Positions 25,441 to 30,853 of a stretch of DNA of 32,000 nt are shown here, in pieces. Under the pieces are notes generated by a model that worked only from the letters and a program-made list of their open reading frames with translations, was not told where the DNA came from and made no database searches. Positions within the stretch are counted from its first letter, which is position 1; every line of letters starts with the position of its first letter. Location of the stretch: the NCBI RefSeq assembly GCF_008189285.1, contig NZ_CP043315.1:120001-152000 (forward strand). Reading direction: 5' to 3'. The stretch comes from Candidatus Saccharimonadota bacterium (lineage in GTDB: Bacteria > Pseudomonadota > Alphaproteobacteria > CAJXXZ01 > 1604HC). The translations under genes and the position numbers were made by a program.

Positions 25441-25625
25441 TAAAGTTGTTCATATTGGCGGATCAGCCTTCATAAATAAAATATACTTCTAAAGGCAAAA
25501 CAGCTTTTACAAATCTATTTCTGGCCTGCTTTTAGCGGAGTCACCAGCGCTATATACCAAGAATAATTCACATTTTGCTGGATCTTTTTCAGAGCATTCT
25601 GCAAGCCTTTTGAGAACTTGAAATT
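25441..25625 (-). pseudogene. Decayed internal fragment of gyrB (Toprim region), same orientation as the intact gene
   Basis: 25491-25624 aligns to gyrB 28000-28137 at roughly 88-90 percent identity by eye. It carries a 2-nt insertion and a 6-nt deletion that destroy the frame and the EGDSAGG motif. Weaker gapped similarity continues to about 25441 (matching about 27926-27999). Confidence 0.8.
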
Positions 25626-26046
25626 ATGAATTTCTTTTTGAATTTTTTGTATATTCCAAAAGATTTTCTATTGGTTTTGGATTTCTTAATATACTATGCT
25701 CACGTTCCACTGTATTTGAACTTAAATATACATCTTTAAGAAATCTAGAAAAGGAATTTAAATCTTCAAATGTTGCAATTCTAATGTCAAATTTGCAGCA
25801 TTCTCTACTAGAGGTAGGTTTAGTAGAAAAGAAAACAGGAGCGCATCCTAGAGAATTTATAAAATATCTCCCTTCTAAGAATTTCTCTTTGCTTAAGTCT
25901 AGCAAATCGATATCTCCTCCTGTAATAATTAGCATTAGCTCTTTTAGCAATGTGTTTATTAGTTTCAATTGTATAAGATTTCTTAAGAGCAAATAACTAT
26001 AATCTTCCATTAGCAACCTTGTTACGTTGATTCTATCATGTCTCAT
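25624..26046 (-). CDS. Hypothetical protein homologous to the C-terminal module of the 443-aa paralog at 29522-30853
   Basis: 140 aa. Shared blocks with residues about 297-443 of the 443-aa ORF are MRHDRIN, LLLRNxIQL, KEL, DLLDLxKExF, LKDVY and NPKPIENLLEY. The start lies 10 nt after the stop of the 273-aa ORF. Confidence 0.7.
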   Translation of the reverse strand: MRHDRINVTRLLMEDYSYLLLRNLIQLKLINTLLKELMLIITGGDIDLLDLSKEKFLEGRYFINSLGCAPVFFSTKPTSSRECCKFDIRIATFEDLNSFSRFLKDVYLSSNTVEREHSILRNPKPIENLLEYTKNSKRNS

Positions 26047-26056
26047 TTCGCCAAAT

Positions 26057-26878
26057 TTATGTGTTTGTAAATTTCTTGCTCTTCTTTGCTGAGATTAAAA
26101 AATTTACTGTAGTTTTGGCATTTGCAATCTTCAATGCAATTTTCAGATACTTTTCATAATCACATATGCCAGGTTCACCAACTACTGCTGATGCTCCATC
26201 ACTGCCAAGTTTTCTAAATCTTTTGCCAATGTTGCGACATATATAATCATCGTAATCATCATTTCGAAATTTATAATCAATTTTCAAAGTATCAATTTTC
26301 ATGCCAGATGGTATAATATTCATTTCACTAAATCCATTTATTCCTATCTCCAACTTTTCAATAGGAGCATTAAAAATAATTGATAATAGAAAATGAGGAA
26401 TACTTTTTGATATATCTAAAGCTCCTACACTTTCTCCACTTATTGCATAACCTCCATTGTAACCTTCTGATATTATGTTCCAGACTTCGCCTGGCTCTCC
26501 GTCAAGAATTCCTTCCATTTTACTGCAAGATATTTCATCCATGATTTGCTTTCCTAGATGTTGATCAATGCCACCTTTTATAGCATCTTCACTGATATCC
26601 ATGTGAAGTAGCTTAAATGCATTTGCTTGAGTGCAATTGCTCATCCTTACATCATCAGTGTTATATAGTTTAGATTTTAATTCATAAGTTACAGATAAAA
26701 ACATCATAATAGCATTTATGTTTATCGTATTAGTTCCTGGTTGGCATAGATCTTTAAATGAACTTAATGCAGATTCTCTAGCTTTGGAATATTCCATCAC
26801 TTCAAAAGTGCAATTAATATTAGACATACTTGCTAAAATAGCGCATGACAATATAGTGCTTTGCAGTTTGTTTAACAT
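26057..26878 (-). CDS. Hypothetical, probably secreted protein; N-terminal 192 aa identical to the 443-aa paralog
   Basis: 273 aa with a signal-peptide-like N-terminus MLNKLQSTILSCAILASMS. Residues 1-192 are identical to ORF 29522-30853. The last 81 aa are unrelated to it. Confidence 0.8.
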   Translation of the reverse strand: MLNKLQSTILSCAILASMSNINCTFEVMEYSKARESALSSFKDLCQPGTNTININAIMMFLSVTYELKSKLYNTDDVRMSNCTQANAFKLLHMDISEDAIKGGIDQHLGKQIMDEISCSKMEGILDGEPGEVWNIISEGYNGGYAISGESVGALDISKSIPHFLLSIIFNAPIEKLEIGINGFSEMNIIPSGMKIDTLKIDYKFRNDDYDDYICRNIGKRFRKLGSDGASAVVGEPGICDYEKYLKIALKIANAKTTVNFLISAKKSKKFTNT

Positions 26879-29339: not shown

Positions 29340-29510
29340 ACTACTATCTTACTGCTATATAGGAATTTTTCCAACAGATTTATTATTATGCTATGTAAAT
29401 TTAAGCATTTTAATATAAATTATACAAAAAAAGAAAGAAATCAGCCTCAATAATCAAAAATATAAATCAAAATATTCAGATTTCCTTGACTAATTTTTTA
29501 AATTGAATTA

Positions 29511-30096
29511 ATAAATAAATCATGTTAAACAAACTGCAAAGCACTATATTGTCATGCGCTATTTTAGCAAGTATGTCTAATATTAATTGTACTTTTGAAG
29601 TAATGGAATATTCCAAAGCTAGAGAATCTGCATTAAGTTCATTTAAAGATCTATGCCAACCAGGAACTAATACGATAAACATAAATGCTATTATGATGTT
29701 TTTATCTGTAACTTATGAATTAAAATCTAAACTATATAACACTGATGATGTAAGGATGAGCAATTGCACTCAAGCAAATGCATTTAAGCTACTTCACATG
29801 GATATCAGTGAAGATGCTATAAAAGGTGGCATTGATCAACATCTAGGAAAGCAAATCATGGATGAAATATCTTGCAGTAAAATGGAAGGAATTCTTGACG
29901 GAGAGCCAGGCGAAGTCTGGAACATAATATCAGAAGGTTATAATGGAGGTTATGCAATAAGTGGAGAAAGTGTAGGAGCTTTAGATATATCAAAAAGTAT
30001 TCCACATTTTCTATTATCAATTATTTTTAATGCTCCTATTGAAAAGTTGGAGATAGGAATAAATGGATTTAGTGAAATGAATATTATACCATCTGG
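29511..30096 (+). repeat. Right arm of the 586-bp inverted repeat flanking gyrB
   Basis: It begins 11 nt upstream of the ATG at 29522 and ends inside codon 192 (Gly of IIPSG). Mismatches to the left arm are at 29590, 29602, 29941 and 30004. Confidence 0.97.
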
Positions 30097-30853
30097 AATT
30101 GCAATTTCCAGATTACACATTCATGCATTTGAATGTGATCTATACCTTCCTGCTTGTACGCTTTATAATCACCTCGTAGATTCAGATGAACTTCAATCTG
30201 AATTTGGTCTTACTTTTGATGAATTAGAGGTTGAGTTAGCATATGAACTATTAGGTGCAAATGATTATGGAATAGAACATAAAATCATCAATGATTGTTT
30301 TCAAGATGGCATTAATACCAACTTTTGCTTTTGTTATAGTGATAATGATAATGAATTAGATGATTTAGGAAAAAAAGAAGATTATAAACGCATGAATTTT
30401 AGCAAAGAAATGAGACATGATCGTATCAATATTTTAAGTGTATCGATAGATATGCAGCAACATTTATTGCTAAGGAATATTATACAATTGGAATATATTG
30501 CCATACTGCCAAAAGAGCTAATAATTGTAGGAGATCATGTAGATCTTTTAGATTTAAATAAGGAAGCATTTATACGTGGAGATTATTTTAGAAAAGGATT
30601 GTTGGATTTTCCTTTTGTGCTTAATGCTGATAATGGAAGTGACACGCCTGCTAATTTTGCAAAACTCGAGGAGTTGGATTTGTTTTTTAGATTACTTAAA
30701 GATGTATACTCAAAAATAGAGAGAAAAAGCGTAGAATGGACTAATGCATATATGAATAATAACGAGAATCTCTCTTCCTTTTCTTTCAGCAATCCAAAGC
30801 CAATAGAAAATCTTTTGGAATATTACAATAATTTCGTTAAAAATAATTCATAA
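29522..30853 (+). CDS. Hypothetical, probably secreted modular protein (fused form of the paralog pair)
   Basis: 443 aa in three parts. The N-terminal 192 aa are identical to ORF 26057-26878. A unique acidic middle segment of about 105 aa follows. The C-terminal segment of about 147 aa is homologous to ORF 25624-26046. It is transcribed divergently from gyrB. Confidence 0.85.
   Translation: MLNKLQSTILSCAILASMSNINCTFEVMEYSKARESALSSFKDLCQPGTNTININAIMMFLSVTYELKSKLYNTDDVRMSNCTQANAFKLLHMDISEDAIKGGIDQHLGKQIMDEISCSKMEGILDGEPGEVWNIISEGYNGGYAISGESVGALDISKSIPHFLLSIIFNAPIEKLEIGINGFSEMNIIPSGIAISRLHIHAFECDLYLPACTLYNHLVDSDELQSEFGLTFDELEVELAYELLGANDYGIEHKIINDCFQDGINTNFCFCYSDNDNELDDLGKKEDYKRMNFSKEMRHDRINILSVSIDMQQHLLLRNIIQLEYIAILPKELIIVGDHVDLLDLNKEAFIRGDYFRKGLLDFPFVLNADNGSDTPANFAKLEELDLFFRLLKDVYSKIERKSVEWTNAYMNNNENLSSFSFSNPKPIENLLEYYNNFVKNNS

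Follow-up and report, generated by a model that had tools for sequence, protein, structure and literature searches.

How does a gene come to stand twice on one chromosome, with copies that are identical at the 5' end, without recognisable similarity in the middle and related again at the 3' end? This question is raised by a locus in a 32-kilobase (kb) stretch of DNA, the whole of which we call the window, from the 628-kb chromosome of Candidatus Cytomitobacter indipagum, a Holosporales endosymbiont of the diplonemid Diplonema aggregatum. In the list of open reading frames (ORFs) of the window, two paralogs lie inverted relative to each other, one on either side of gyrB. One is a continuous gene for a protein of 443 amino acids (aa), and the other is split into ORFs of 273 and 140 aa. 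An initial annotation, made from the letters alone, had described these three ORFs and the contrast between a continuous and a split paralog; all three are present in the ORF list at the coordinates it gave, and the contrast is supported. The 443-aa gene and the two-ORF copy are a true paralog pair. Their mosaic appearance is probably explained, though we are well short of certain, by an old duplication, a recent patch of gene conversion and frameshift damage to an orphan gene. The features of the locus are as follows (nt, nucleotides).

29522-30853, plus strand: intact copy, 443 aa (FZC35_00645, hypothetical protein in GenBank), with an N domain (residues 1-192), an acidic middle (193-296) and a C module (297-443)
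26057-26878, minus strand: first ORF of the split copy, 273 aa (FZC35_00635), with the N domain (1-192) and an 81-aa basic tail
25624-26046, minus strand: downstream ORF of the split copy, 140 aa, whose frame is +1 with respect to that of the 273-aa ORF
26294-26889, minus strand: left arm of the inverted repeat, an 11-nt leader plus codons 1-195
29511-30106, plus strand: right arm of the inverted repeat, 596 nt
26890-29510: inter-arm segment, holding gyrB (27051-29339, minus strand) and both upstream regions
25490-25623, minus strand: gyrB relic, codons 402-447 (Toprim region), frameshifted
26049-26153, minus strand: third-frame stretch of the split copy, reading KVSENCIEDCKCQNYSKFFNLSKEEQEIYKHINLAK up to a stop codon and colinear with residues 254-295 of the intact protein

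How old is the pair? In BLASTP, residues 297-443 of the intact protein match the 140-aa ORF with an expectation value (E) of 1e-26 and 41% identity, which becomes 48% over the aligned codons, and the alignment score of 230 is far above chance (shuffle mean 31). The homology of these two modules had been proposed before and stands, but the earlier estimate of one third identical residues was too low. Both modules open with MRHDRIN, as had been noticed. NPKPIENLLEY is also common to both, although it does not end them as had been thought, since 8-9 more residues follow before the C-terminus. The proportion of synonymous differences (pS) between the C modules is 0.56, the synonymous distance (dS) 1.03, the nonsynonymous distance (dN) 0.49 and the ratio dN/dS 0.48. 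For housekeeping orthologs of C. indipagum and C. primus, pS is 0.63-0.67. Because the value for the C modules comes near to that of the orthologs and slightly below it, the duplication is old; its age is comparable to the divergence within the genus, or perhaps a little less. Judged by the same ratios, the C module is evolving fast but not neutrally, with moderate constraint retained at the protein level. At a neutral distance so near saturation, unconstrained sequence can no longer be aligned, which accounts for the observation that homology between the copies stops exactly at both stop codons; for the same reason a weakly constrained middle need not be recognisable. The GenBank gene FZC35_00630 covers only the last 103 aa of the 140-aa ORF, annotated from Met38. 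The 37 codons before the annotated start contain no stop and show conservation with the paralog (MRHDRIN, LLLRN-IQL), so this start is probably too far downstream.

The 5' block does not share this divergence. The 596-nt arms of the inverted repeat are 99.3% identical, lie 2621 nt apart and start 11 nt upstream of both ATGs. The repeat had been reported as a 586-bp block; it is real, and its size is corrected here to 596 nt. The first 192 aa, said earlier to be shared, are identical between the 443-aa and 273-aa proteins, and similarity then drops abruptly. Within the 586 coding nt of the repeat there are four differences (positions 29590, 29602, 29941 and 30004), all at third codon positions and synonymous; the right arm also differs from the left at the edge position 30097, which is again a synonymous third position. 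An assembly artefact was considered and rejected, as four positions distinguish the arms and Nanopore reads were used to close the genome. The synonymous fraction of the possible single changes in the 5' block is 0.20, so that four synonymous differences out of four have a chance of about 0.002, and both N domains therefore look constrained at the protein level. At each edge of the block identity falls to background within a few bases. Past the 3' edge, similarity at the level of old paralogs runs on for about 16 residues (IAISRLHI-HAFECDLY versus MKIDTLKIDYKFRNDDY). What is seen is a tract of near-identity with sharp edges, embedded in an older divergence that amounts in the C modules to about 60% nucleotide identity and a dS of about 1.

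Then, what history would leave such a pattern? An old whole-gene duplication would have placed two copies in inverted orientation. RecA-dependent gene conversion would have kept the 5' block identical, or repeatedly made it so, in a form of concerted evolution that leaves sharp tract edges, and divergence creeping in from outside would have sharpened these edges. RecA and RecFOR are reported to be present in the C. indipagum genome (bioRxiv 10.1101/719211), their genes lying outside the window. Since conversion cannot start at only 60% identity, the tract was probably maintained continuously. The rest of the gene would have diverged, with the poorly constrained middle drifting past recognition. 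In the minus-strand copy at least two insertions or deletions (indels) would have shifted the frame, with the result that its N domain now ends in an out-of-frame basic tail and its C module survives as a separate ORF starting at the internal Met of the intact gene.

The tufA and tufB genes of Salmonella provide a precedent, being inverted paralogs that evolve in concert by gene conversion (PMC5485169). The likeness to the tuf genes of Salmonella and E. coli lies in the inverted arrangement of the pair, in its near-identity, in conversion and in the possibility that the two copies recombine and so turn round the DNA that separates them. The differences are substantial. In the tuf pair the whole gene is homogenised, whereas here only the first 596 nt are; the tuf copies are 761 kb apart, those described here 2.6 kb; and in C. 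indipagum the gene is an orphan, one copy is disrupted in its frame, and conversion and inversion are inferred rather than observed.

The origin of the split is to be sought in the middle segments. These are 104 and 81 aa long, and the earlier statement that they lack recognisable similarity (about 105 versus 81 aa) agrees with our comparison, which found no significant similarity in the annotated frames (p = 0.13 for amino acids and p = 0.08 for nucleotides, against shuffles). At the nucleotide level, the homologous C block reaches some 35 nt further upstream than the internal ATG, with 20 of 25 positions identical and then a 4-nt gap. Upstream of this ATG the split copy reads, in its third frame, ...EEQEIYKHINLAK and then a stop codon, against ...KKEDYKRMNFSKE in the intact protein. 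The whole third-frame piece (about 35 codons, 26049-26153) scores 40 against residues 254-295, compared with a shuffle mean of 24.7 and a standard deviation of 4.6 (p = 0.007 before correction for the number of pieces tested). Taken together, the similarity that continues past the edge of the 5' block and the homology upstream of the internal ATG argue for common descent and not for replacement of a cassette. The unrelated-looking middle is thus more readily taken for homologous sequence that is old, under little constraint and partly out of frame than for a cassette swapped in from elsewhere. The two ORFs of the split copy, adjacent and on the same strand, align colinearly with their intact homolog, and we hold with moderate confidence that a fused gene, broken by two or more indels, gave rise to the split copy. 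The 81-aa tail is basic and Lys-rich, with an isoelectric point (pI) of 9.5, against 4.3 for the intact middle. By codon-frame likelihood a coding-frame signal is present along the whole length of the intact copy; the signal is weak in the tail and equally weak in part of the intact middle.

Endosymbiont genes split by frameshifts look much the same, in that adjacent same-strand ORFs, here 10 nt apart and in different frames, are colinear with an intact paralog. Unlike in a simple case of this kind, the downstream ORF is fully open and has a dN/dS below 1. Because this ORF is open, and because conversion from the intact copy would shield the upstream part, the locus is not simply decaying.

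Could the split itself be adaptive? Were the locus a functional modular system, its N-domain protein would have the MRHDRIN module as partner, the two being joined in one chain in one copy and made as two translationally coupled products in the other. Several properties of the locus would fit such a system. The 140-aa ORF is unbroken and its initial Met is conserved in the intact copy, the C modules have a dN/dS of 0.48, all differences in the N block are synonymous, so that both N domains look constrained, and the two ORFs are only 10 nt apart. This last distance, between the stop of the 273-aa ORF and the ATG of the 140-aa ORF, had been given correctly from the outset. On the other side, homology crosses the junction in a frame that neither ORF uses and with a 4-nt indel, and the basic, Lys-rich tail with its weak coding signal resembles out-of-frame AT-rich sequence. 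There is no obvious Shine-Dalgarno-like sequence before the ATG of the 140-aa ORF, and the first 37 codons of this ORF are not called by GenBank. We regard a modular system as unlikely. The initial annotation had argued from fusion in one paralog and fission in the other that the modules act together; as frameshifts in a fused gene appear to have produced the split copy, this copy offers no independent evidence of two interacting proteins, and that argument falls away.

Is the gene related to any known family? A phmmer search of 1.84 billion representative proteins and two word-indexed searches covering 5.8 billion proteins returned only the three ORFs themselves, and matches in Pfam, NCBIfam, PADLOC, PHROGs and PDB sequences did not rise above noise (Pfam and NCBIfam at E<=1). 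This bears out the earlier impression that none of the modules belongs to a characterised family, and the match to a housekeeping family that had been considered as a contrary outcome was found in neither Pfam nor NCBIfam. Peptide-pattern scans of genome and metagenome collections produced no relative, with the limit that the scan for the 443-aa protein did not return even the source locus. Every module was compared by tblastn and blastn with the gyrB regions of six related genomes, and only gyrB itself matched. The six are C. primus (two assemblies), two genomes with 77-78% GyrB identity, a metagenome-assembled genome with 73%, and Ca. Nesciobacter abundans; one short contig was included in addition. 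The further copies that the initial annotation had suggested looking for in related genomes did not appear in these six gyrB regions, and there is no third copy in the window (tblastn) or among the annotated proteins of any genome. Hypothetical proteins with signal peptides that adjoin gyrB in the relatives (hyp404, hyp499, hyp540, hyp381 and hyp321) were considered as diverged orthologs and rejected by BLASTP and profile-profile comparison. By all these searches the family is a genuine lineage-specific orphan of C. indipagum.

As there are no homologs from which to build an alignment, the AlphaFold2 models are unusable, with a mean predicted local distance difference test score (pLDDT) of 30.0 for the 443-aa protein and 37.8 for the C module alone. 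The intact protein has a pI of 4.6 and no transmembrane helix, and mild hydrophobicity is seen at its residues 5-18. By our own reading the N-terminus, a segment of weak signal-peptide-like character, may hold an AILA|S cleavage site. The N-terminus resembles those of other hypothetical proteins of these genomes, which hold many putative secreted proteins (bioRxiv 10.1101/719211), and on these two grounds export of the orphan protein is a plausible prediction. The orphan family may face the protist host.

The searches also bear on the proposal that the locus varies by segmental recombination, with a constant 5' end, an exchangeable middle and silent donors elsewhere. The genes msp2/p44 of Anaplasma, an alphaproteobacterial intracellular bacterium, are conserved at the 5' and 3' ends around a centre that is dissimilar, and they vary by gene conversion through the RecF pathway, a process that the locus described here, likewise from such a bacterium, would share. 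The initial annotation had likened the locus to these cassettes or to polymorphic toxin loci. The resemblance is one of layout, superficially in favour of such a locus: the 5' ends are nearly identical, the middles dissimilar and the 3' ends semi-conserved. Unlike in msp2/p44, just two copies were found here, both with a start codon of their own, and their 3' ends are only about 45% identical. The Surface_Ag_2/MSP2 family gave no match in Pfam or NCBIfam (E<=1, noise apart), and no silent truncated donor cassettes were found in the window by tblastn or among the annotated proteins, a search that at the DNA level covered the 32 kb of the window and not the other parts of the chromosome, in line with the missing third copy in the window, the annotated proteins and the six related gyrB loci. 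With polymorphic toxins (Rhs, CDI, MafB) the locus has in common a constant N-terminal part after which similarity between copies breaks off abruptly. In those toxins it is the extreme C-terminus that varies, with an immunity gene behind it, whereas here the C-terminal module is conserved. Pfam, NCBIfam, PADLOC and the PDB sequence search revealed no known trafficking or toxin domain, and outer-membrane-protein and immunity domains were likewise absent. No immunity-like gene follows either copy: after the intact copy comes the convergent birA, and after the 140-aa ORF the gyrB relic and non-coding DNA. With only two copies in the DNA and proteins searched, none of these domains and a middle that reads as a drifted homolog, we give a cassette or toxin locus hardly any credence. 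At the convergent stops of birA and the 443-aa gene, a direct repeat of 28-30 nt (TTTTTGCAATAATTTTCTATAATTTCTA) fills the gap with two copies (30872-30929).

Under the history of duplication, conversion and frameshift that we favour, the arms of the repeat would be available for recombination, and this leads to the question of what has happened to gyrB between them. The relic, 134 nt long and in the same orientation as gyrB, begins directly behind the stop of the 140-aa ORF. Its identity with gyrB of its own genome is 86%, against 72-79% with gyrB of the relatives, which marks it as the trace of a lineage-specific event that is intermediate in age; a partial tandem duplication may once have had its junction here. 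In one related genome the gyrB locus (L004) has the same outer flanks as the window, hisS-prfA on one side and birA (minus)-gltX (plus) on the other, and its gyrB points in the opposite direction to that of the window and is followed by rpsF/rpsR. On its coding strand the window gyrB has a GC skew at third codon positions (GC3 skew) of +0.24, compared with +0.27 to +0.41 for plus-strand orthologs; for minus-strand genes in these genomes the GC3 skew is mostly near zero or negative.

Gene order around gyrB varies among the relatives (L001, L003, L004, L005 and L007, around position 10001-12300), where birA, gltX, glyA, rpsF/rpsR and unrelated signal-peptide hypotheticals change position and strand. 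The pair rpsF/rpsR adjoins gyrB in all Cytomitobacter-like relatives and is absent from the window. Within the window, plus-strand genes at 16-25 kb have a coding-strand GC3 skew of about +0.3 to +0.5 and minus-strand genes at 1-15 kb an average of about +0.08. Since the skew depends on the strand in this way, the minimum of the cumulative skew near 15 kb may reflect gene orientation, with or without a replication origin.

The locus sits at a synteny breakpoint and, with its relic and its differing neighbours, is a site prone to recombination. The relic, the variable gyrB flanks, the orientation in L004 and the GC3 skew together suggest that the gyrB segment has been inverted, its present orientation being the flipped one, and that this happened probably through the repeats. 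The 596-nt arms are probably the substrate for inversion of the 2.6-kb gyrB segment. At this length they would serve homologous and not site-specific recombination, and no dedicated recombinase of the shufflon or hsdS type is found among the neighbours hisS, prfA, gyrB, birA and gltX.

If the segment can be inverted, does it act as a switch? Inversion of 26890-29510 would exchange the places of the two 3' variants, one of which follows the divergent promoter region on the gyrB side and the other gyrB itself, giving two heritable states of expression. Because the repeats lie within the coding sequences and begin 11 nt before the ATGs, such an inversion would swap the upstream regions exactly and keep both ORFs intact. 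The reported RecA and RecFOR (bioRxiv 10.1101/719211) could carry it out, and recombination between tufA and tufB in Salmonella yields inversions in up to half of the events (PMC6735719). Moreover, gyrB is flipped with respect to L004 between the same flanks and has kept a GC3 skew of the leading-strand type. Other findings speak against a switch. No promoter can be assigned, as a scan for promoters and terminators in this AT-rich DNA did no better than on shuffled sequences. There is no site-specific recombinase nearby and the neighbours (hisS, prfA, gyrB, birA, gltX) are housekeeping genes, one of the supposed variants looks damaged by a frameshift, and no benefit in flipping an essential gene is evident. 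We consider a recombination-driven expression switch decidedly unlikely. That the segment flips in the living population as a RecA-driven phase switch of a host-facing secreted protein is, in our estimation, very unlikely indeed; if it were true, the states would express from the stronger site either the fused 443-aa protein or a truncated N-domain protein together with a free C module.

Returning to the history of old duplication, conversion and frameshift, several points have to be counted against it. The third-frame homology is short, and its p value rises to about 0.06 after correction for the eight pieces tested. The middles as a whole are not significantly similar, and their replacement by unrelated DNA is a possible alternative to drift. 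The 140-aa ORF is open, and we estimate the probability of a chance open frame as long as this at about 1e-5 for DNA of such composition; its dN/dS is below 1. The split copy is therefore no pseudogene of long standing, and its split may be tolerated or may even have a function. Conversion, unable to begin between copies only 60% identical, would need to have acted without a break ever since the duplication. Finally, no inversion isomer has been observed, the flip of gyrB being deduced from gene order and GC3 skew.

Repeats of other kinds occur elsewhere in the window. A 67-nt tandem unit is present in 6.3 copies with 100% match at 10942-11362 (array edges 10875-11410), which is unusual for a gene-dense reduced genome; the array is intergenic, between a hypothetical gene (9316-10632, minus strand) and argS (11542-13185, minus strand). 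A 14-nt tandem repeat, AAAACAGTCAAAAT, occupies 511-640 with 9.3 copies and 99% match, just downstream of dnaE (719-3859, minus strand). An inverted repeat of 55 nt, 84% complementary, has one arm (22293-22347) within a conserved hypothetical gene (21944-22690) and the other (22717-22771) just downstream of it, and is followed by a 27-nt direct repeat at 22821-22874.

The main practical value of these results is a correction of the annotation: the 140-aa ORF extends further upstream than its annotation, and the locus likely represents a paralog broken by frameshifts. The mosaic would be the product of ordinary genome dynamics, namely duplication, conversion, frameshifts and a probable inversion, acting on an orphan gene, with no new mechanism indicated. 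For the biology of the endosymbiont this would mean that homologous recombination is still shaping a 628-kb genome that has been described as stable.

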